A stretch of DNA of 64,000 nucleotides from Eledone cirrhosa (GCA_964016885.1 OZ024742.1:183582001-183646000); one strand, 5' to 3'; shown: positions 2,169 through 38,000, counted from the stretch's first letter. Numbers and translations are program-made. Notes: generated from the letters alone by a model not told the origin.

Positions 2169-3655
2169 TTAAAATGATAAATGGTGTTTGTTTGCTTTGC
2201 ACATTCTCCTTACTTCTTCAGCTCCAACCAGACCAAATTTAATATATCGTGTTTTGAATACCTCTTTCTTAGCGGTTGGAGCTAAAGTATCGAATGAATA
2301 ATTTGATGTGATGATTATTGTTGTCCGTTTTACAATTTGGCTCCTTTTGAATTTAATAGCCACCGCTGTATCTGCACTTTCGAAAATCTTTTTAAAAGTT
2401 TGGAGAGTCTCCATGATCATATTAGGTTCCTTGAAGAGACAAATTTCACAGCCTACCATGTCTTGAAAGGGGAAAAAAAAGTCCCTTGCATTGTCGACGT
2501 AACCTAAAATGTTTCTCTACAGATCTTGCGATAAAGGATTTGACGATAAGGGTTCACCTTTAAGTATCAATGTGTTCTGTTTAGGGTTATTTCTGATTTA
2601 AAATGTTCCATATATCTTGAACGAATTCGTCTATATCTATGTGACTTATAATTTTGAGTGATAAAGTAGTTGAATGATATTTATTAGTATTAAATTTGTG
2701 CCAGTCCATATTTATGTATTTGGTACGAAAAGGTGTATTTAGAGTCTGTCTTGCACATATCAGCCATGTTTTTAATTATTGTTTCGTATTATGGATGAGC
2801 TAACGCAGTTAAATTGTTTCCGTTCTTATGTATGTTGCATTTCATTTTTGTGTTCTTTCCTGTCATACAAAAATTTAAGATAATTAAAAAGATTCATGTT
2901 GACCTTTTGTATTCATGAATATACCGTATTTCCCGGCGTCGAAGACCCTACTTTTTTCCTAAAATAAGTCTAAAAAATCTACCATGCGTCCTGGAGGCAG
3001 AAAAAAAATAAACAACCATGCGTCCTGGATACCGAAGGTTGTTTATTTTTTTTCAAAATTTTGGTTGTCAAAATTAGGGTGCGTCCGGGAAATATGGTAA
3101 GTTCTTTAGGATTTTTTATTATTTTGCGAGGAGTAGAGGTGTAATGTTTATCTGGTTGAATTTGTTTTTCTAAGCGCCATTGTTCCGAATATTTTACAGG
3201 CCCAGTTATTATTGTGTACTAATATTTCCTTGATTCAAGGCAAAAGTAGCTTGCCAGTGCTGCAGGAAATTTAACTTGTTGACAAGGTGGAAATTTACTT
3301 TTGTAGTTTGTAGCTTTCCAATATTCTATTCCTATATTCTGCCAGGTACTGTCTTTTGGTGGTGTTTTATCGCTTGTCACACAACATATTATGTGGAAAT
3401 GGTTTACACCATCCCAAGCCTTATTTTGACAGAGTTCAGAATTAGATCCTGGGTGAAGTATTATTATTGCTTTTCTGTTTAGTATGAAACGAAGAAGACG
3501 AGCATTTTTGTTAGGAGTATCTTGACTATCTCTATCGTTATCGTCGACATTTATATGTATTGCTGAATCAAAAGGAATACTAGCTTTTTTATCCCAACTG
3601 AATTGCGGTGGAAAAATCCATGGCTATACTGCCGTATACAATTTCTCATTTGAAC
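2169..3655 (-). pseudogene. NS1: Endogenous parvovirus/densovirus-like NS1 (HUH endonuclease + SF3 helicase), disrupted
   Basis: Manual translation gives the HUH motif GVNHFHIIC (~3390-3415) and candidate catalytic Tyr LASYF (~3245). It then gives IDEFVQDIWNILNQK, PKQNTLILKGEP..KSFIARSV (frameshifted Walker A), FPFQDMVGCEICLFKEP (Walker B region), FKKIFE..VAIKFK (motif B') and TIIITSN (motif C). Several stops and frameshifts, plus a MITE insertion. Confidence 0.9.
2924..3097. mobile_element. Tc1/mariner-pogo (Tc2-like) MITE inserted in the NS1 pseudogene
   Basis: TIRs CCGTATTTCCCGG / CCGGGAAATATGG (1 mismatch) with TA on both sides (2922-23, 3098-99). Removing it restores the NS1 frame (..KNPKELIFMNTK..). 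Confidence 0.85.
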
Positions 3656-3680
3656 CTTTAAGAAAAATAAAGGAAACTTA

Positions 3681-5466
3681 TTAACGTGTTATTGGATACG
3701 CCTCACTAGAAACAGGTTGAGCATATGTACGATAGCCTTGAGGTCATTGACAAAGTTTCATTTTCTTTTCTGGGTTTAATGACATGATCTAGTACATGTT
3801 GGTATTCTAGGATAATATCCAATGAATTGTGGTGAACCACTTGGATACTCAAAGTCAATTTCTGAGAAATAATCAACTGTTAGCAAAAATATTGTTTTAG
3901 CTGTTTTATTTTTAGCATCTAAGAAAAATATTGGATCTAGTACAGTTACTGGTGATGGATTACTAGGATTAATAGGGAATTCTGTTAGAAGACTTCTACT
4001 TGGATTATTAATGTCTGTTATAAGTCTGTCTCATTTAACATCGCTAGTATTAAGTGTCCAAAGCTTGTTGTTTTCGTAATCATTGATTTCGTGAGGCACT
4101 AACTGCACTTATTTCATTAGGCGAGATGTGACCCGTGAAGGCATCAAATTGCATGGAATTGAACCATGATGGGCTTCTGCATACCCATGTGTACTCCCAC
4201 GTCTTAAAATCCATCATTGTCCAGTATTATACATGCTAAATAATTATTTTGCGTTTACTGTTTGTTCTGTAGCAGATGGATGTATTCTGTTGTTAAAGTT
4301 GAGTGTTTCATTAGGTACAGTTCTATTTTGTTGTTTCCCCACCTTCCCTGGTTCATAGTCGTTATTAAGTTGCTTGACAGTTCTTGTTTGATTTATGAAC
4401 ATAGCTGCGTTTGTATCTACGTATGTCATTATCCAAGGTCTTGTATTGAATGTAGTATTTGTTGTAGTTGTATTCTGTACTGTTGATAATTCATCAGTTA
4501 TAGGTATTACTGACGTGAAATCCGTAACTTCTTACTATCCATGATTCACGTGGATACCAGTATGTTGGGGCCTCGTTTGCCTTGAAAATATGAGGGGGAC
4601 AAACCAACATTTGTTGATTCTTAAAGGAGCATGTTAGTATTGCTTATGGTGCCTTTCCCGGACCTTTTCACATAGTAAAAATTTACACTAATAAGATTTT
4701 ATATAGTCAAATGAAGTTCAGATATAAAAAAATAAGCTTAAAAAAATTATTATATCAAATAAGCAAAAAATAAAACATAGACGTTTGAAAAAGTGGGCGG
4801 TTGTCCCCTGGCACCCCACTGAAACAAGGCCCTTGCTTGTATTATTGTAATTCAGTTTCAGTGCATGATGCTCGTAAGTCTTTGTATGGTATTTGTACAC
4901 ATCTATGTGTGATGTTGATGTCTGTATATTTTTAGTCTTTTGTATTCCATTTATATTTAGCAATATCAATTAGTTCTGTGAATACATCTACATAATGGAA
5001 CAAAGTTCTACAGAATTTCTTGGTTACAATAGGATTCTTATCGCCTACCTGAGGCGGTGTGTCTGTTGCTATTGTGATTCCAGAGCCACCGGTCGATACT
5101 CTACTTTCGGTTCAATCATTTCTACGCTTTCTACTAGTTGTTCGTCTGTATCGTTTGAGTTTTCGATTTCACTTGTTCGTGCTTCTTGTTCTACTCGTCT
5201 CTTTTTATGATAAGGTGGCATTCATACAATTGTGTCCGAAAGGTTATTAGTGTATTTATCGAAAACTGTTTTTGTTTTTATAGCGTATTTTACTATGTTT
5301 GCATCGAAAGTATTTATGTGTTCTATATCGTTTAACAAATCGTGTGTCATCTGAGTACTGAATATTGTGTTTGTAACATGCAACATCTAATTCATTTATT
5401 GTTTTATTTTTGGATAAAATCATTAGAAAAGGGACCACAGAAATTATAACCAAGTAAATGAGACAT
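3681..5466 (-). pseudogene. VP1: Endogenous parvovirus-like capsid VP1 with N-terminal PLA2 domain, disrupted
   Basis: ATG at 5466 gives MSHLLGYNFCGPF (PLA2 Ca-loop-like), then INELDVACYKHNIQYS..DTRF (HDxxY-like helix). Gly-rich STGGSG is followed by IVTKKFCRTLFHY (betaB-like), GLSPSYFQ (alphaA-like), SYGFHVS..IPITDELSTVQNTTTTNTTFNTRPWIMTYVDTN (betaD/E-like), NTGQ..WEYTW and NPSPVTVLDPI..LTVDYFSEIDFE (betaH/I-like). Stop at 3681-3683. Confidence 0.85.
4650..4836. mobile_element. Probable DNA-transposon fragment interrupting the capsid pseudogene
   Basis: AT-rich non-coding block ending in a GC-rich, transposon-end-like motif (GGGCGGTTGTCCCCTGGCACCCCACTGAAACAAGGCCCTTG) between two capsid-like segments. 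Boundaries approximate. Confidence 0.4.
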
Positions 5467-5563
5467 TACTTACAATAAGTTTTGCTATTAAAGGAGCAGC
5501 TTTTTCTTTGAAGTATTCTGATGACATTTTTGCTGTTTTTCTTTTTTTGGTATTGATGTAAAA

Positions 5564-5800
5564 CAGCGGACGCCAACCTTTCGGACTTCAGGACCACTAA
5601 ATTCATAATTTTTAATCTCGTGGACCACTAATATGAATGTTTTTAAAAAGATAAATACATTTCTAAATTAATGATCAGAAAACTTCCATTTTATTAAACA
5701 ATACATGGATAGATGATACATACATTCTTTCATGGATGTTAGTTCTTTACTGAGAAGAAACATTTGTTAGGGGTGTTATAAAATACATTTTAACCAAATA
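5564..5800. mobile_element. hAT (Charlie-type) transposon end fragment truncating the viral element
   Basis: Begins CAGCGGACGCCAACCTTT..GGACCAC..GTGGACCAC, typical of Charlie/Buster termini. Confidence 0.55.
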
Positions 5801-6158: not shown

Positions 6159-8345
<2,187 letters not shown>

Positions 8346-25905: not shown

Positions 25906-28900
25906 AATATAGATAGTATGTGTGTCTAGAGTGTGTTTACGGCTGTGTCTGTCAGACAGGAACACGTCTGTAAAGGTTACAATATAGATAGTATGTGTGT
26001 CTAGAGTGTGTTTACGGCTGTGTCTGTCAGACAGGAACACGTCTGTAAAGGTTACAATATAGATAGTATGTGTGTCTAGAGTGTGTTTACGGCTGTGTCT
26101 GTCAGGCAGGGACATGTCTGTAAAGGTTACAATATAGATGGTATGTGTGTCTAGAGTGTGTTTACGGCTGTCTGTCAGACAGGAACATGTCTGTAAAGGT
26201 TACAGTATAGATAGTATGTGTGTCTAGAGTGTGTTTACGGCTGTGTCTGTTAGACAGGAACATGTCTGTAAAGGTTACAATATAGATAGTATGTGTGTCT
26301 AGAGTGTGCTTACGGCTGTGTCTGTCAGACAGGAACACGTCTGTAAAGGTTACAATATAGATGGTATGTGTGTCTAGAGTGTGTTTACGGCTGTGTCTGT
26401 CAGACAGGAACACGTCTGTAAAGGTTACAATATAGATGGTATGTGTGTCTAGAGTGTGTTTACGGCTGTGTCTGTCAGGCAGGGACACGTCTGTAAAGGT
26501 TACAATATAGATGGTATGTGTGTCTAGAGTGTGTTTACGGCTGTGTCTGTCAGACAGGAACACGTCTGTAAAGGTTACAATATAGATAGTATGTGTGTCT
26601 AGAGTGTGTTTACGGCTGTGTCTGTCAGGCAGGGACACGTCTGTAAAGGTTACAATATAGATAGTATGTGTGTCTAGAGTGTGTTTACGGCTGTGTCTGT
26701 CAGGCAGGGACACGTCTGTAAAGGTTACAATATAGATGGTATGTGTGTCTAGAGTGTGTTTACGGCTGTGTCTGTCAGACAGGAACACGTCTGTAAAGGT
26801 TACAATATAGATAGTATGTGTGTCTAGAGTGTGTTTACGGCTGTGTCTGTCAGGCAGCAACACGTCTGTAAAGGTTACAATATAGATAGTATGTGTGTCT
26901 AGAGTGTGTTTACGGCTGTGTCTGTCAGACAGGAACACGTCTGTAAAGGTTACAATATAGATAGTATGTGTGTCTAGAGTGTGTTTACGGCTGTGTCTGT
27001 CAGGCAGGGACACGTCTGTAAAGGTTACAATATAGATGGTATGTGTGTCTAGAGTGTGTTTACGGCTGTGTCTATCAGACAGGAACACGTCTGTAAAGGT
27101 TACAATATAGATAGTATGTGTGTCTAGAGTGTGTTTACGGCTGTGTCTGTCAGGCAGGAACACGTCTGTAAAGGTTACAATATAGATAGTATGTGTGTCT
27201 AGAGTGTGTTTACGGCTGTGTCTGTCAGACAGGAACACGTCAGTAAAGGTTACAATATAGATAGTATGTGTGTCTAGAGTGTGTTTACGGCTGTGTCTGT
27301 CAGGCAGGGACACGTCTGTAAAGGTTACAATATAGATGGTATGTGTGTCTAGAGTGTGTTTACGGCTGTGTCTGTCAGACAGGAACACGTCTGTAAAGGT
27401 TACAATATAGATGGTATGTGTGTCTAGAGTGTGTTTACGGCTGTGTCTGTCAGGCAGGGACACGTCTGTAAAGGTTACAATATAGATGGTATGTGTGTCT
27501 AGAGTGTGTTTACGGCTGTGTCTGTCAGACAGGAACACGTCTGTAAAGGTTACAATATAGATAGTATGTGTGTCTAGAGTGTGTTTACGGCTGTGTCTGT
27601 CAGGCAGGGACACGTCTGTAAAGGTTACAATATAGATAGTATGTGTGTCTAGAGTGTGTTTACGGCTGTGTCTGTCAGGCAGGGACACGTCTGTAAAGGT
27701 TACAATATAGATGGTATGTGTGTCTAGAGTGTGTTTACGGCTGTGTCTGTCAGACAGGAACACGTCTGTAAAGGTTACAATATAGATAGTATGTGTGTCT
27801 AGAGTGTGTTTACGGCTGTGTCTGTCAGACAGGAACACGTCTGTAAAGGTTACAATATAGATAGTATGTGTGTCTAGAGTGTGTTTACGGCTGTGTCTGT
27901 CAGGCAGGGACACGTCTGTAAAGGTTACAATATAGATGGTATGTGTGTCTAGAGTGTGTTTACGGCTGTGTCTATCAGACAGGAACACGTCTGTAAAGGT
28001 TACAATATAGATAGTATGTGCGTCTAGAGTGTGTTTACGGCTGTGTCTGTCAGGCAGGAACACGTCTGTAAAGGTTACAATATAGATAGTATGTGTGTCT
28101 AGAGTGTGTTTACGGCTGTGTCTGTCAGACAGGAACACGTCAGTAAAGGTTACAATATAGATAGTATGTGTGTCTAGAGTGTGTTTACGGCTGTGTCTGT
28201 CAGACAGGAACACGTCTGTAAAGGTTACAATATAGATGGTATGTGTGTCTAGAGTGTGTTTACGGCTGTGTCTGTCAGACAGGGACACGTCTGTAAAGGT
28301 TACAATATAGATGGTATGTGTGTCTAGAGTGTGTTTACGGCTGTGTCTGTCAGACAGGGACACGTCCGTAAAGGTTACAATATAGATGGTATGTGTGTCT
28401 AGAGTGTGTTTACGGCTGTGTCTGTCAGGCAGGAACACGTCTGTAAAGGTTACAATATAGATAGTATGTGTGTCTAGAGTGTGTTTACGGCTGTGTCTGT
28501 CAGACAGGAACACGTCTGTAAAGGTTACAATATAGATGGTATGTGTGTCTAGAGTGTGTTTACGGCTGTGTCTGTCAGACAGGGACACGTCTGTAAAGGT
28601 TAAAATATAGATAGTATGTGTGTCTAGAGTGTGTTTACGGCTGTGTCTGTCAGACAGGGACACGTCTGTAAAGGTTACAATATAGATAGTATGTGTGTCT
28701 AGAGTGTGTTTACGGCTGTGTCTGTCAGGCAGGGACATGTCTGTAAATGTTACAATATAGATGGTATGTGTGTCTAGAGTGTGTTTACGGCTGTGTCTGT
28801 CAGGCAGGGACATGTCTGTAAATGTTACAATATAGATGGTATGTGTGTCTAGAGTGTGTTTACGGCTGTGTCTGTCAGAGAGGGACATGTCTGTAAAGGT

Positions 28901-31900
28901 TACAGTATAGATGGTATGTGTGTCTAGAGTGTGTTTACGGCTGTGTCTGTCAGACAGGGACATGTCTGTAAAGGTTACAATATAGATGGTATGTGTGTCT
29001 AGAGTGTGTTTACGGCTGTGTCTGTCAGACAGGGACACGTCTGTAAAGGTTACAATATAGATAGTATGTGTGTCTAGAGTGTGTTTACGGCTGTGTCTGT
29101 CAGGCAGGGACACGTCTGTAAAGGTTACAATATAGATAGTATGTGTGTCTAGAGTGTGTTTACGGCTGTGTCTGTCAGACAGGAACACGTCTGTAAAGGT
29201 TACAATATAGATAGTATGTGTGTCTAGAGTGTGTTTACGGCTGTGTCTGTCAGGCAGGGACACGTCTGTAAAGGTTACAATATAGATGGTATGTGTGTCT
29301 AGAGTGTGTTTACGGCTGTGTCTGTCAGGCAGGGACACGTCTGTAAAGGTTACAATATAGATGGTATGTGTGTCTAGAGTGTGTTTACGGCTGTGTCTGT
29401 CAGACAGGAACACGTCTGTAAAGGTTACAATATAGATAGTATGTGTGTCTAGAGTGTGTTTACGGCTGTGTCTGTCAGGCAGGGAGACGTCTGTAAAGGT
29501 TACAATATAGATAGTATGTGTGTCTAGAGTGTGTTTACGGCTGTGTCTGTCAGACAGGAACACGTCTGTAAAGGTTACAATATAGATAGTATGTGTGTCT
29601 AGAGTGTGTTTACGGCTGTGTCTGTCAGGCAGGGACACGTCTGTAAAGGTTACAATATAGATGGTATGTGTGTCTAGAGTGTGTTTACGGCTGTGTCTGT
29701 CAGGCAGGGACACGTCTGTAAAGGTTACAATATAGATGGTATGTGTGTCTAGAGTGTGTTTACGGCTGTGTCTGTCAGACAGGAACACGTCTGTAAAGGT
29801 TACAATATAGATAGTATGTGTGTCTAGAGTGTGTTTACGGCTGTGTCTGTCAGGCAGGGAGACGTCTGTAAAGGTTACAATATAGATAGTATGTGTGTCT
29901 AGAGTGTGTTTACGGCTGTGTCTGTCAGACAGGAACACGTCTGTAAAGGTTACAATATAGATAGTATGTGTGTCTAGAGTGTGTTTACGGCTGTGTCTGT
30001 CAGGCAGGGACACGTCTGTAAAGGTTACAATATAGATGGTATGTGTGTCTAGAGTGTGTTTACGGCTGTGTCTGTCAGGCAGGGACACGTCTGTAAAGGT
30101 TACAATATAGATGGTATGTGTGTCTAGAGTGTGTTTACGGCTGTGTCTGTCAGGCAGGGACACGTCTGTAAAGGTTACAATATAGATGGTATGTGTGTCT
30201 AGAGTGTGTTTACGGCTGTGTCTGTCAGACAGGGACACGTCCGTAAAGGTTACAATATAGATGGTATGTGTGTCTAGAGTGTGTTTACGGCTGTGTCTGT
30301 CAGGCAGGAACACGTCTGTAAAGGTTACAATATAGATAGTATGTGTGTCTAGAGTGTGTTTACGGCTGTGTCTGTCAGACAGGAACACGTCTGTAAAGGT
30401 TACAATATAGATGGTATGTGTGTCTAGAGTGTGTTTACGGCTGTGTCTGTCAGACAGGGACACGTCTGTAAAGGTTAAAATATAGATAGTATGTGTGTCT
30501 AGAGTGTGTTTACGGCTGTGTCTGTCAGACAGGGACACGTCTGTAAAGGTTACAATATAGATAGTATGTGTGTCTAGAGTGTGTTTACGGCTGTGTCTGT
30601 CAGGCAGGGACATGTCTGTAAATGTTACAATATAGATGGTATGTGTGTCTAGAGTGTGTTTACGGCTGTGTCTGTCAGGCAGGGACATGTCTGTAAATGT
30701 TACAATATAGATGGTATGTGTGTCTAGAGTGTGTTTACGGCTGTGTCTGTCAGAGAGGGACATGTCTGTAAAGGTTACAGTATAGATGGTATGTGTGTCT
30801 AGAGTGTGTTTACGGCTGTGTCTGTCAGACAGGGACATGTCTGTAAAGGTTACAATATAGATGGTATGTGTGTCTAGAGTGTGTTTACGGCTGTGTCTGT
30901 CAGACAGGGACACGTCTGTAAAGGTTACAATATAGATAGTATGTGTGTCTAGAGTGTGTTTACGGCTGTGTCTGTCAGGCAGGGACACGTCTGTAAAGGT
31001 TACAATATAGATAGTATGTGTGTCTAGAGTGTGTTTACGGCTGTGTCTGTCAGACAGGAACACGTCTGTAAAGGTTACAATATAGATAGTATGTGTGTCT
31101 AGAGTGTGTTTACGGCTGTGTCTGTCAGGCAGGGACACGTCTGTAAAGGTTACAATATAGATGGTATGTGTGTCTAGAGTGTGTTTACGGCTGTGTCTGT
31201 CAGGCAGGGACACGTCTGTAAAGGTTACAATATAGATGGTATGTGTGTCTAGAGTGTGTTTACGGCTGTGTCTGTCAGGCAGGGACACATCTGTAAAGGT
31301 TACAATATAGATGGTATGTGTGTCTAGAGTGTGTTTACGGCTGTGTCTGTCAGGCAGGGACACGTCTGTAAAGGTTACAATATAGATAGTATGTGTGTCT
31401 AGAGTGTGTTTACGGCTGTGTCTGTCAGGCAGGGACACGTCTGTAAAGGTTACAGTATAGATAGTATGTGTGTCTAGAGTGTGTTTACGGCTGTGTCTGT
31501 CAGACAGGAACACGTCTGTAAAGGTTACAATATAGATAGTATGTGTGTCTAGAGTGTGTTTACGGCTGTGTCTGTCAGGCAGGGACACGTCTGTAAAGGT
31601 TACAATATAGATGGTATGTGTGTCTAGAGTGTGTTTACGGCTGTGTCTGTCAGGCAGGGACACGTCTGTAAAGGTTACAATATAGATGGTATGTGTGTCT
31701 AGAGTGTGTTTACGGCTGTGTCTGTCAGACAGGAACACGTCTGTAAAGGTTACAATATAGATAGTATGTGTGTCTAGAGTGTGTTTACGGCTGTGTCTGT
31801 CAGGCAGGGAGACGTCTGTAAAGGTTACAATATAGATAGTATGTGTGTCTAGAGTGTGTTTACGGCTGTGTCTGTCAGACAGGAACACGTCTGTAAAGGT

Positions 31901-34900
31901 TACAATATAGATAGTATGTGTGTCTAGAGTGTGTTTACGGCTGTGTCTGTCAGGCAGGGACACGTCTGTAAAGGTTACAATATAGATGGTATGTGTGTCT
32001 AGAGTGTGTTTACGGCTGTGTCTGTCAGGCAGGGACACGTCTGTAAAGGTTACAATATAGATGGTATGTGTGTCTAGAGTGTGTTTACGGCTGTGTCTGT
32101 CAGACAGGAACACGTCTGTAAAGGTTACAATATAGATAGTATGTGTGTCTAGAGTGTGTTTACGGCTGTGTCTGTCAGGCAGGGAGACGTCTGTAAAGGT
32201 TACAATATAGATAGTATGTGTGTCTAGAGTGTGTTTACGGCTGTGTCTGTCAGACAGGAACACGTCTGTAAAGGTTACAATATAGATAGTATGTGTGTCT
32301 AGAGTGTGTTTACGGCTGTGTCTGTCAGGCAGGGACACGTCTGTAAAGGTTACAATATAGATGGTATGTGTGTCTAGAGTGTGTTTACGGCTGTGTCTGT
32401 CAGGCAGGGACACGTCTGTAAAGGTTACAATATAGATGGTATGTGTGTCTAGAGTGTGTTTACGGCTGTGTCTGTCAGGCAGGGACACGTCTGTAAAGGT
32501 TACAATATAGATGGTATGTGTGTCTAGAGTGTGTTTACGGCTGTGTCTGTCAGGCAGGGACACGTCTGTAAAGGTTACAATATAGATGGTATGTGTGTCT
32601 AGAGTGTGTTTACGGCTGTGTCTGTCAGGCAGGGACACGTCTGTAAAGGTTACAATATAGATGGTATGTGTGTCTAGAGTGTGTTTACGGCTGTGTCTGT
32701 CAGACAGGAACACGTCTGTAAAGGTTACAATATAGATGGTATGTGTGTCTAGAGTGTGTTTACGGCTGTGTCTGTCAGGCAGGGACACGTCTGTAAAGGT
32801 TACAATATAGATGGTATGTGTGTCTAGAGTGTGTTTACGGCTGTGTCTGTCAGACAGGAACACGTCTGTAAAGGTTACAATATAGATAGTATGTGTGTCT
32901 AGAGTGTGTTTACGGCTGTGTCTGTCAGGCAGGGACACGTCTGTAAAGGTTACAATATAGATGGTATGTGTGTCTAGAGTGTGTTTACGGCTGTGTCTGT
33001 CAAACAGGAACACGTCTGTAAAGGTTACAATATAGATAGTATGTGTGTCTAGAGTGTGTTTACGGCTGTGTCTGTCAGGCAGGGACACGTCTGTAAAGGT
33101 TACAATATAGATGGTATGTGTGTCTAGAGTGTGTTTACGGCTGTGTCTGTCAGACAGGAACACGTCTGTAAAGGTTACAATATAGATGGTATGTGTGTCT
33201 AGAGTGTGTTTACGGCTGTGTCTGTCAGGCAGGGACACGTCTGTAAAGGTTACAATATAGATGGTATGTGTGTCTAGAGTGTGTTTACGGCTGTGTCTGT
33301 CAGACAGGAACACGTCTGTAAAGGTTACAATATAGATAGTATGTGTGTCTAGAGTGTGTTTACGGCTGTGTCTGTCAGGCAGGGACACGTCTGTAAAGGT
33401 TACAATATAGATGGTATGTGTGTCTAGAGTGTGTTTACGGCTGTGTCTGTCAAACAGGAACACGTCTGTAAAGGTTACAATATAGATAGTATGTGTGTCT
33501 AGAGTGTGTTTACGGCTGTGTCTGTCAGGCAGGGACACGTCTGTAAAGGTTACAATATAGATGGTATGTGTGTCTAGAGTGTGTTTACGGCTGTGTCTGT
33601 CAGACAGGAACACGTCTGTAAAGGTTACAATATAGATGGTATGTGTGTCTAGAGTGTGTTTACGGCTGTGTCTGTCAGACAGGAACACGTCTGTAAAGGT
33701 TACAATATAGATGGTATGTGTGTCTAGAGTGTGTTTACGGCTGTGTCTGTCAGACAGGGACACGTCTGTAAAGGTTACAATATAGATAGTATGTGTGTCT
33801 AGAGTGTGTTTACGGCTGTGTCTGTCAGGCAGGGACACGTCTGTAAAGGTTACAATATAGATGGTATGTGTGTCTAGAGTGTGTTCACGGTTGTGTCTGT
33901 CAGACAGGGACACGTCTGTAAAGGTTACAATATAGATGGTATGTGTGTCTAGAGTGTGTTTACGGTTGTGTCTGTCAGGCAGGAACACGTCTGTAAAGGT
34001 TACAATATAGATGGTATGTGTGTCTAGAGTGTGTTTACGGTTGTGTCTGTCAGACAGGAACACGTCTGTAAAGGTTACAATATAGATAGTATGTGTGTCT
34101 AGAGTGTGTTTACGGCTGTGTCTGTCAGACAGGGACACGTCTGTAAAGGTTACAATATAGATGGTATGTGTGTCTAGAGTGTGTTTACGGTTGTGTCTGT
34201 CAGGCAGGAACACGTCTGTAAAGGTTACAATATAGATAGTATGTGTGTCTAGAGTGTGTTTACGTCTTTGTCTGTCAGACAGGGACATGTCTGTAAAGGT
34301 TACAATATAGATGGTATGTGTGTCTAGAGTGTGTTTACGTCTGTGTCTGTCAGACAGGGACATGTCTGTAAAGGTTACAATATAGATGGTATGTGTGTCT
34401 AGAGTGTGTTTACGGCTGTGTCTGTCAGACAGGGACATGTCTGTAAAGGTTACAATATAGATGGTATGTGTGTCTAGAGTGTGTTTACGTCTGTGTCTGT
34501 CAGACAGGGACACGTCTGTAAAGGTTACAATATAGATAGTATGTGTGTCTAGAGTGTGTTTACGGCTGTGTCTGTCAGACAGGAACACGTCTGTAAAGGT
34601 TACAATATAGATAGTATGTGTGTCTAGAGTGTGTTTACGGTTGTGTCTGTCAGGCAGGGACACGTCTGTAAAGGTTACAATATAGATGGTATGTGTGTCT
34701 AGAGTGTGTTTACGGTTGTGTCTGTCAGACAGGAACACGTCTGTAAAGGTTACAATATAGATGGTATGTGTGTCTAGAGTGTGTTTACGGCTGTGTCTGT
34801 CAGACAGGGACACGTCTGTAAAGGTTACAATATAGATGGTATGTGTGTCTAGAGTGTGTTTACGGCTGTGTCTGTCAGACAGGGACACGTCTGTAAAGGT

Positions 34901-37900
34901 TACAATATAGATAGTATGTGTGTCTAGAGTGTGTTTACGTCTGTGTCTGTCAGGCAGGAACACGTCTGTAAAGGTTACAATATAGATGGTATGTGTGTCT
35001 AGAGTGTGTTTACGGCTGTGTCTGTCAGACAAGAACACGTCTGTAAAGGTTACAATATAGATGGTATGTGTGTCTAGAGTGTGTTTACGGCTGTGTCTGT
35101 CAGACAGGGACACGTCTGTAAAGGTTACAATATAGATGGTATGTGTGTCTAGAGTGTGTTCACGGCTGTGTCTGTCAGACAGGGACACGTCTGTAAAGGT
35201 TACAATATAGATGGTATGTGTGTCTAGAGTGTGTTTACGGTTGTGTCTGTCAGACAGGAACACGTCTGTAAAGGTTACAATATAGATGGTATGTGTGTCT
35301 AGAGTGTGTCTAGCGCTGTGTCTGTCAGACAGGGACACGTCTGTAAAGGTTACAATATAGATAGTATGTGTGTCTAGAGTGTGTTTACGGCTGTGTCTGT
35401 CAGACAGGGACACGTCTGTAAAGGTTACAATATAGATGGTATGTGTGTCTAGAGTGTGTTTACGGTTGTGTCTGTCAGGCAGGAACACGTCTGTAAAGGT
35501 TACAATATAGATAGTATGTGTGTCTAGAGTGTGTTTACGTCTTTGTCTGTCAGACAGGGACATGTCTGTAAAGGTTACAATATAGATGGTATGTGTGTCT
35601 AGAGTGTGTTTACGTCTGTGTCTGTCAGACAGGGACATGTCTGTAAAGGTTACAATATAGATGGTATGTGTGTCTAGAGTGTGTTTACGGCTGTGTCTGT
35701 CAGACAGGGACATGTCTGTAAAGGTTACAATATAGATGGTATGTGTGTCTAGAGTGTGTTTACGTCTGTGTCTGTCAGACAGGGACACGTCTGTAAAGGT
35801 TACAATATAGATAGTATGTGTGTCTAGAGTGTGTTTACGGCTGTATCTGTCTGACAGGGACACGTCTGTAAAGGTTACAATATAGATAGTATGTGTGTCT
35901 AGAGTGTGTTTACGGCTGTGTCTGTCAGACAGGAACACGTCTGTAAAGGTTACAATATAGATAGTATGTGTGTCTAGAGTGTGTTTACGGCTGTGTCTGT
36001 CAGGCAGGGACACGTCTGTAAAGGTTACAATATAGATGGTATGTGTGTCTAGAGTGTGTTTACGGCTGTGTCTGTCAAACAGGAACACGTCTGTAAAGGT
36101 TACAATATAGATAGTATGTGTGTCTAGAGTGTGTTTACGGCTGTGTCTGTCAGGCAGGGACACGTCTGTAAAGGTTACAATATAGATGGTATGTGTGTCT
36201 AGAGTGTGTTTACGGCTGTGTCTGTCAGACAGGAACACGTCTGTAAAGGTTACAATATAGATGGTATGTGTGTCTAGAGTGTGTTTACGGCTGTGTCTGT
36301 CAGACAGGAACACGTCTGTAAAGGTTACAATATAGATGGTATGTGTGTCTAGAGTGTGTTTACGGCTGTGTCTGTCAGACAGGGACACGTCTGTAAAGGT
36401 TACAATATAGATAGTATGTGTGTCTAGAGTGTGTTTACGGCTGTGTCTGTCAGGCAGGGACACGTCTGTAAAGGTTACAATATAGATGGTATGTGTGTCT
36501 AGAGTGTGTTCACGGTTGTGTCTGTCAGACAGGGACACGTCTGTAAAGGTTACAATATAGATGGTATGTGTGTCTAGAGTGTGTTTACGGTTGTGTCTGT
36601 CAGGCAGGAACACGTCTGTAAAGGTTACAATATAGATGGTATGTGTGTCTAGAGTGTGTTTACGGTTGTGTCTGTCAGACAGGAACACGTCTGTAAAGGT
36701 TACAATATAGATAGTATGTGTGTCTAGAGTGTGTTTACGGCTGTGTCTGTCAGACAGGGACACGTCTGTAAAGGTTACAATATAGATGGTATGTGTGTCT
36801 AGAGTGTGTTTACGGTTGTGTCTGTCAGGCAGGAACACGTCTGTAAAGGTTACAATATAGATAGTATGTGTGTCTAGAGTGTGTTTACGTCTTTGTCTGT
36901 CAGACAGGGACATGTCTGTAAAGGTTACAATATAGATGGTATGTGTGTCTAGAGTGTGTTTACGTCTGTGTCTGTCAGACAGGGACACGTCTGTAAAGGT
37001 TACAATATAGATGGTATGTGTGTCTAGAGTGTGTTTACGGCTGTGTCTGTCAGACAGGGACACGTCTGTAAAGGTTACAATATAGATAGTATGTGTGTCT
37101 AGAGTGTGTTTACGTCTGTGTCTGTCAGGCAGGAACACGTCTGTAAAGGTTACAATATAGATGGTATGTGTGTCTAGAGTGTGTTTACGGCTGTGTCTGT
37201 CAGACAAGAACACGTCTGTAAAGGTTACAATATAGATGGTATGTGTGTCTAGAGTGTGTTTACGGCTGTGTCTGTCAGACAGGGACACGTCTGTAAAGGT
37301 TACAATATAGATGGTATGTGTGTCTAGAGTGTGTTCACGGCTGTGTCTGTCAGACAGGGACACGTCTGTAAAGGTTACAATATAGATGGTATGTGTGTCT
37401 AGAGTGTGTTTACGGTTGTGTCTGTCAGACAGGAACACGTCTGTAAAGGTTACAATATAGATGGTATGTGTGTCTAGAGTGTGTCTAGCGCTGTGTCTGT
37501 CAGACAGGGACACGTCTGTAAAGGTTACAATATAGATGGTATGTGTGTCTAGAGTGTGTTTACGGCTGTGTCTGTCAGACAGGGACACGTCTGTAAAGGT
37601 TACAATATAGATAGTATGTGTGTCTAGAGTGTGTTTACGTCTGTGTCTGTCAGGCAGGAACACGTCTGTAAAGGTTACAATATAGATGGTATGTGTGTCT
37701 AGAGTGTGTTTACGGCTGTGTCTGTCAGACAAGAACACGTCTGTAAAGGTTACAATATAGATGGTATGTGTGTCTAGAGTGTGTTTACGGCTGTGTCTGT
37801 CAGACAGGGACACGTCTGTAAAGGTTACAATATAGATGGTATGTGTGTCTAGAGTGTGTTCACGGCTGTGTCTGTCAGACAGGGACACGTCTGTAAAGGT

Positions 37901-38000
37901 TACAATATAGATAGTATGTGTGTCTAGAGTGTGTTTACGGCTGTGTCTGTCAGACAGGGACACGTCTGTAAAGGTTACAATATAGATGGTATGTGTGTCT
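25906..38000. repeat. Homogeneous 75-bp tandem satellite, about 161 units
   Basis: Unit AATATAGATRGTATGTGTGTCTAGAGTGTGTTTACGGCTGTGTCTGTCAGRCAGGRACACGTCTGTAAAGGTTAC. Degenerate monomers flank it at ~25385-25610 and ~38000-38100. Confidence 0.98.

Follow-up and report, generated by a model that had tools for sequence, protein, structure and literature searches.

In the genome of Eledone cirrhosa, a parvovirus-like element carries its capsid (VP) gene upstream of its NS1 gene on the same strand, which raises the question of whether this order was native to the virus and, if so, how NS1 would be expressed from behind the capsid gene. The window, the whole stretch of 64,000 nucleotides that was analyzed (GCA_964016885.1 OZ024742.1:183582001-183646000), contains a dead, host-integrated parvovirus copy in which VP is followed by NS1 on one strand. 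As described in the first-pass annotation, VP runs on the minus strand from 5466 to 3681, and after about 25 nt it is followed by the NS1 frame, which extends to 2169. The copy very likely derives from a VP-first parvovirus, whose genome was likely linear, hairpin-ended and about 4 kb long and whose NS1 was likely made via an 18-codon exon spliced over the capsid gene.

The decayed copy in the window

The following features were recognized.

5553..5760, no strand assigned: flanking high-copy host repeat (40 scored genome-wide matches stop at query 189-210, i.e., ~5572-5551; depth jump)
5474..5527, minus strand: predicted NS1 exon 1, 18 codons from an ATG, phase 0 (length and phase shared with 13 distinct relatives)
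5468..5473, minus strand: splice donor GTAAGT, 7 nt ahead of the VP ATG (from sequence and from conservation in relatives)
3681..5466, minus strand: decayed VP1 capsid gene, within the predicted intron (homology to the Octopus vulgaris capsid and to open paralogs)
4567..4836, no strand assigned: host repeat inserted in VP after integration (39 other genomic matches with 86-91% identity, query 845-1148)
3656..3676, minus strand: pyrimidine tract and decayed splice acceptor
2169..3656, minus strand: decayed NS1 frame (exon 2), interrupted by stops and frameshifts (Parvo_NS1 match; identity to paralogs and external relatives)
3393..3401, minus strand: HUH endonuclease motif H-F-H (from sequence; same motif in three open paralogs)
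2922..3099, no strand assigned: MITE-like host element in NS1, 178 nt with 15-nt terminal inverted repeats (from sequence and depth)
2298..2507, minus strand: remnant of the SF3 helicase core, Walker B to motif C (Pfam PF01057 residues 384-453)

Host repeat lies upstream of ~5552, i.e., it starts about 25 nt upstream of the ATG at 5527; the viral promoter and the 5' hairpin are both absent from this copy. VP starts with the ATG at 5466 and stops at 3683-3681. Behind it, the pyrimidine tract begins at 3676, and the AG is at 3657-3656. Both VP and NS1 are interrupted by several stops and frameshifts, with stops in every matched segment, and the Walker A motif is degenerate. Contig depth is very high in bins 2788-3155, around the MITE-like element. 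In three public runs from one sample, which may be the assembly's own, individual contigs (3057-4614) extended across the VP/NS junction at single-copy depth and with two alleles. Thus, the junction belongs to the host DNA and did not arise during assembly. When DNA runs were mapped to the window and to one relative (L042), no splice-like joint appeared, as would be predicted for DNA. A look-up of RNA runs for 3120-4560 of the window listed none, which bears on splicing in neither direction. The 3' flank in the window had no hairpin (fold z -0.76). Palindromes at 7250-7353 and 7393-7590 were considered as viral termini and rejected, as they are 1.7 kb off and beyond host repeats.

The pieces of VP in the window were 45-55% identical to a 536-aa protein of O. 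vulgaris (P0183), whose NCBI name is 'capsid [Octopus vulgaris]', as far as the final residue ahead of the stop, and the two proteins end at the same residue. Because its relatives match in this way, VP was identified as a capsid protein. Its identities to the open paralogs ranged from 30 to 49%. This agrees with the earlier assignment of the frame as a PLA2-containing VP1 capsid gene. The PLA2 part was weak in the window, where the VP N-terminus matched the PLA2-like family PF08398 at E 0.087, under the cut-off, and clear in the open paralogs, where the E value was 1e-13. Against solved capsids, the VP core matched 6wh3 (E 4e-9), 9nek (E 4e-6), and 3n7x (E 0.03), each over one stretch of 56-72 profile positions; the closest ones, over these short stretches, were those of Penaeus monodon metallodensovirus (PmMDV; Metalloincertoparvovirus, now Metallovirinae), Syngnathus scovelli chapparvovirus (SsChPV), and PstDV. 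In the Atlas, VP matched parvovirus capsid clusters at 0.93-0.95 and likewise one smacovirus capsid cluster at 0.95. The AlphaFold model of VP had a pLDDT of only 29.

NS1 is a parvoviral HUH-SF3 protein. With X at its stops, the NS frame of the window matched Parvo_NS1 (PF01057) at E 1.2e-5 and 24.9 bits (cut-off 20), and the open paralogs matched at E 7e-16 and 6e-18. In three paralogs, NS1 possesses a Walker A motif GxxxxGKS and EEP, together with H-F-H at residue 88 and a conserved Tyr downstream. The best PDB match of NS1 was AAV Rep, and its top Atlas matches were NS1 at 0.97-0.98. The identities of NS1 in the window ranged from 29 to 40% with the open paralogs and from 30 to 55% with external relatives. 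When 5.8 billion proteins were searched, none of the 2585 candidates returned for the NS frame of the window (X at stops) was homologous, and 6 of the 3216 returned for the NS of an open paralog were.

Gene order and splice signals in the relatives

The same genome was searched with the helicase piece and the C-terminal piece of VP, which identified at least 29 NS1-like and at least 23 VP-like matches, respectively. Sixty stretches were taken around the best matches from the first and later searches, and the census covered these and the window (61 in total), of which 32 contained both genes. A VP end next to an NS start was recorded in 24 rows, which after removal of three rounding duplicates represent 21 distinct junctions in 19 of the 61 stretches. 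Eighteen of them belong to lineage A, which is the lineage of the window, and 3 to a second lineage, lineage B; the window itself fell below the census cut-off, because the end of its VP lies in a different frame. An NS end next to a VP start was recorded in 12 rows that represent 2 junctions, both in one cluster on contig C12. Each of these two joins viruses of different lineages and has terminal or host sequence between the genes; no NS-end-to-VP-start junction within the same virus was found in the 61 stretches. The 21 VP-to-NS junctions versus 2 NS-to-VP junctions, which come from related copies and are therefore not independent events, depart from the customary rule that NS is on the left or on the opposite strand, as worded in section 1.1.1 of a recent review (PMC11357303).

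In the open copies, VP is 522-538 aa long, and an NS frame of 474-567 aa lies directly behind it. Open loci are located, for example, on contigs C998, C12 (9.07-9.09 Mb), C14, C10, and C5. The gap between the VP stop and the NS frame in the relatives is ~25-45 nt. Conservation of the VP-then-NS1 order and of the donor and acceptor, which had been set beforehand as the test of the first-pass annotation, was thus borne out, and the order is almost certainly native to the virus. Near-identical open copies, with 0-4 differences in 1569 nt, were found at several loci, suggesting recent invasion of the germ line. A living virus of this host group likely exists.

Ahead of VP, 13 distinct relatives (identical copies removed) possess a frame of exactly 54 nt that ends at the donor; from there, it is 7 or 10 nt to the start of VP. 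This frame opens with ATG in 12 of the 13. The donor GT is present in 12 and positions +4 to +6 (AGT) in all 13; at three further loci, the donor GT was present in two and absent in one. The counts of synonymous and nonsynonymous single-base codon differences were 240 and 139 in the exon 1 frame versus 136 and 325 and 118 and 331 in the other two frames, which indicates a direction and carries no p-value, as the counts are pairwise and the pairs are not independent. The other two frames over exon 1 contain stops in 13 and 5 of the 13 copies, respectively. In the window, a frame of this length starts with the ATG at 5527, and the spacing to the VP ATG is likewise 7 nt. By itself, the hexamer GT[AG]AGT is uninformative, as 1.26 are expected per shuffle of the region. 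The full pattern of ATG, 51 nt, donor, and ATG within 7-10 nt, which was defined from the relatives, occurred in 5 of 5000 shuffles.

On the acceptor side, CAG lies in phase 0 right before the NS frame and behind a T-rich tract in all 12 distinct relatives whose NS N-terminus could be aligned, and the positions flanking this CAG vary among them. The acceptor is also in phase at two further loci (CAG in L090 and TAG in L099); in L056, the site was lost to a host repeat. Given that exon 1 ends in phase 0 and that CAG is in phase 0, a join between exon 1 and NS1 keeps the reading frame in the relatives. The AG of the window is shifted by one base from their register, so that the acceptor of this copy is broken. 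The donor GTAAGT at 5473-5468, the pyrimidine tract, and the AG had been located correctly by the first-pass annotation. The frame ending in SFNSKTYCK that it had proposed as the exon upstream of the donor was replaced: the sole ATG of that frame is inside the flanking host repeat, and the predicted exon 1 is 5527-5474 in phase 0. Its in-phase join to the NS1 frame, which is in phase 1, is a coincidence of decay, the relatives being joined in phase 0.

Termini, expression and alternative explanations

The unit of L042 is ~3.95 kb long and contains, from 5' to 3', a hairpin remnant with (CCCT)n, two TATA-like boxes, exon 1, VP, NS1, AATAAA, a T run, a complementary (GGGA)n, and a palindrome centre. 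The folds of the 5' hairpin had z values of -13.6 (L055) and -12.4 (L057), and those of the 3' hairpin had z values of -19.2 (L042), -7.0 (L045), and -4.4 (L048). Moreover, two types of inverted arrangements were found, head-to-head in L041 and tail-to-tail in L042 and L055. Such arrangements together with hairpins have the look of the rolling-hairpin intermediates of a linear genome (PMC6537627). A linear genome of ~4-6 kb with terminal hairpins was thus found in the paralogs only and not in the window copy. The viral genome was likely linear, hairpin-ended, and ~4 kb in size; of the earlier suggestion of a linear or circular lineage, the terminal hairpins and inverted dimers of the relatives favor the linear part.

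Lineage B adjoins two lineage-A copies on C12, and its NS1 and VP are 23 and 25% identical to those of lineage A, respectively. In the genome, it accounts for 33 VP matches and for 38 NS matches, a few of the latter being lineage A. Similar to lineage A, VP and then NS lie on one strand in lineage B, and a 5' hairpin was found (z -8.6). Lineage B has no exon 1: its VP ATG is close behind a TATA-like box, its NS starts from its own ATG soon after the VP stop, and TATAAA lies between VP and NS in three of the nine contexts examined. In a quick SF3 tree, the backbone of which is weak, lineage B was not sister to lineage A. The inverted order would therefore either be old or have arisen twice.

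Conservation of exon 1, donor, and acceptor argues for a model in which, in lineage A, NS1 is very probably made mainly by splicing out VP, as had been proposed in the first-pass annotation along with the production of VP from the unspliced RNA. One left-hand promoter would give rise to one pre-mRNA. The unspliced RNA would yield VP1 with its PLA2 domain by leaky scanning past a uORF that begins in exon 1; in unspliced RNA, this uORF is 27-29 codons long (27 in the window) and overlaps the VP start in all 14 rows compared (the window and 13 relatives). Later ATGs, such as that of Met77, which is present in three open copies, might yield shorter VPs. AATAAA is present 2-5 times inside VP of the open copies, which makes separate polyadenylation of VP possible. 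Removal of the ~1.6-kb intron would place exon 1 in frame with the HUH and SF3 domains of NS1. The ratio of NS1 to VP would then be set by splicing efficiency, and the early-to-late switch would be intron retention. Replication would proceed by rolling hairpin, the intermediates of which would have been integrated many times in the host germ line.

A normal NS-VP parvovirus permuted by concatemer integration or local rearrangement would agree with the scrambled or partial state of several loci (L059, L049, L061, and L065) and with clusters in which several insertions are side by side. However, unrelated loci on many contigs share this short VP-NS spacer, in viruses that are 45-100% identical over the compared N-terminal stretches. 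In the relatives, the promoter and the terminus precede VP, and neither is ever found between the two genes, so that a concatemer no longer explains the order. This reading is thus largely refuted and extremely improbable. That the genome was circular, or that circles persisted, with the VP-before-NS order merely reflecting the point at which they opened, is also very improbable. The 25-nt gap between VP and NS would fit a compact circle, but the units are bounded by a 5' hairpin with promoter and by AATAAA with a 3' hairpin, the head-to-head and tail-to-tail dimers are those predicted from rolling-hairpin intermediates, and the NS-to-VP junction within one virus was never encountered in the census.

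A further alternative accepts the native order and differs in how NS1 is expressed, in that NS1 would come from its own internal promoter in the 3' end of VP and start at a conserved Met, splicing being minor or giving an isoform. All 12 of the relatives compared have a Met eight codons past the acceptor, from which NS1 could start without exon 1, and the arrangement of lineage B, with its own NS ATG and intergenic TATAAA, points the same way. Nevertheless, TATA[AT]A was absent from the 400 nt ahead of the acceptor in all three open copies tested, and an internal promoter would not account for the constraint on the 18-codon exon, for the donor, or for the invariance of the in-phase CAG. This alternative is therefore considered unlikely. 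The splicing model is favored because the constrained exon, the donor, and the in-phase acceptor have no other use.

Relationship to known parvoviruses

Of 1.84 billion representative proteins, 1813 matched the NS1 profile at E <= 0.001. The quick tree contained 88 rows, with three in four of the lower-ranked matches above P0075 dropped, had no classified references, was midpoint-rooted, and was used solely for the clade around the window. The window was on a long branch within a clade of 23 rows (SH-aLRT 99) that also included lineage A, L050, and Logan/ENA proteins. Among the rows looked up, the sole named member of this clade was an SF3 protein of Octopus bimaculoides, and one named unclassified bird-virome parvovirus was outside it. 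The O. bimaculoides SF3 protein and the O. vulgaris capsids suggest a cephalopod host group. Searches of IMG/VR and JGI metagenomes, made with either the NS1 alignment or P0029, yielded no related locus.

According to section 1.1.1 of the review cited above, the left-hand part of every parvovirus genome carries NS and the right-hand part VP (PMC11357303). This rule is descriptive there and is absent from the ICTV characteristics as listed in PMC6537627. Among the layouts given in the available text of a 2026 paper, which comprise monosense, ambisense, and bipartite ones and two new odd lineages, none is VP-first (PMC13426907), and no VP-first genome is present in the accessible portions of PMC10267136, PMC12115719, PMC12451622, and PMC11945456. 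In the literature searched, in which coverage of subscription papers was thin and which did not include the primary papers on PmMDV, GmDNV, and ZmBWV, no description of a VP-first parvovirus was found. The VP-first lineage is thus probably undescribed, as the first-pass annotation had supposed. It has the NS1 and the termini of the family and departs from its customary gene order.

Similar to the monosense Parvoviridae, as characterized in PMC6537627 and in section 1.1.1 of PMC11357303, the lineage has two cassettes, an NS1 with HUH and SF3 domains, an N-terminal PLA2 in VP1, short terminal hairpins, a genome of ~4 kb, and predicted splicing and leaky scanning. Different from them, in which NS is on the left, VP is the gene next to the promoter and is flanked by the predicted NS1 exons. 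Removal of an entire ORF by splicing to reach downstream NS ORFs is also described for the ambisense densoviruses in the portions available of PMC5818608. For instance, the intron of AdDNV (223-855) spans NS3 (225-866), and in PcDNV a first exon of 57 nt is joined to a downstream NS ORF (PMC5818608). In those viruses, however, the intronic gene is the small nonstructural NS3 and VP is on the opposite strand, whereas here it is the capsid gene and is on the same strand. The densovirus intron thus provides, as far as that account goes, a precedent for the mechanism with a different passenger (PMC5818608).

As summarized in the review, PmMDV (GenBank MK028683) is aquatic, has a genome of 4.4 kb with an organization said to be unique, and has no PLA2, whereas VP1 of the window lineage has PLA2, as found in the open paralogs; the same review, which covers PmMDV, places NS on the left in all parvoviruses (PMC11357303). 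The PLA2 of the window lineage is carried on a capsid core whose nearest counterparts are those of aquatic parvoviruses without PLA2, which speaks against the limitation of VP-borne PLA2 to two subfamilies in the account of PMC13426907. The Swazi bat megaparvovirus-like clade of the same account is likewise unclassified, known partly from EVEs, and predicted to be spliced, and it has a PLA2 ORF upstream of NS1. In that clade, however, the PLA2 ORF is separate, the capsid gene follows NS1, and the genome is ~6.4 kb (PMC13426907).

A new genome architecture within the parvoviruses is well supported, and it would be a third basic layout beside the monosense and ambisense ones. That NS lies to the left of VP is called universal in the review (PMC11357303, section 1.1.1), and the temporal program of the family is read from this order. 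With the capsid gene promoter-proximal and in an intron of NS1, one promoter and one splice choice could run the cycle in a reversed layout. We lean toward the broader view that these copies represent an undescribed, subfamily-level group of capsid-first mollusc parvoviruses whose invasion of octopus germ lines continues. In this view, the replicase would have the capsid gene as its intron, retention of that intron would be the early-to-late switch, and a second deep lineage, which attained or retained the same order, would use an internal NS promoter. A free virus would be worth seeking in cephalopod viromes. Parvovirus-related sequences of molluscs that fall outside known genera are presented without gene maps in the available part of PMC5013282, and those in its Table S2 may include members of this lineage.

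Capsid relatives and near-identical copies

The closest full-length relative of the VP in the window was a capsid of Octopus vulgaris. Five near-identical capsid gene models, two of them full-length, were found on one O. vulgaris chromosome (P0183 and P0185–P0188), and their accession numbers are near-consecutive (CAI9722210–CAI9722215).

In the genome of Eledone cirrhosa, a single virus variant was found at four loci, which were L042 on contig C998, L055 on C14, L080 on C5 and L041/L098 on C10. The four VP copies compared (one from C998, two from C14 and one from C5) showed 0–4 differences per 1569 nt, and several copies of this variant were inverted dimers. This points to very recent integration or post-integration copying.

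A distant capsid-first lineage and insertion clusters

A second parvovirus lineage, whose NS1 was only 23% identical to that of the window's lineage, was likewise capsid-first. The predicted 18-codon first exon of NS1 was absent from this lineage, and its NS is probably expressed from an internal promoter. Its loci were:

L045:2907–1 and L046:9900–9361, corresponding to about 9,077,460–9,080,910 of C12 (assembly G000)
L070, L073–L076, L078, L083 and L086, further loci

Several insertions of both lineages also lay side by side amid transposon fragments, an arrangement as might be expected of piRNA-cluster-like EVE hot spots. These clusters in G000 were:

C12, 8.97–9.09 Mb
C25, 7.43–7.46 Mb
C2, 345.36–345.38 Mb
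C841

Tandem expansions and host repeats

Pieces of both viral genes were tandemly expanded inside host DNA, those of NS1 with a 108-nt period and ~1000 open codons (L047:753–3911) and those of VP with a period of ~80 nt (L054:6830–8410). The window itself contained the following repeats:

1–1870, host repeat with a unit of ~630 nt, at least three tandem copies, 86–97% identity
7250–7353 and 7393–7590, two near-perfect palindromes with arms of 52 and 94 nt, respectively, among AT microsatellites
25906–38000, tandem satellite with a 75-nt unit, at least 161 copies, 96% matches

The palindromes are probably host repeat remnants. The ~630-nt repeat array adjoins the downstream side of the element, and reads indicated a very high copy number for this repeat.
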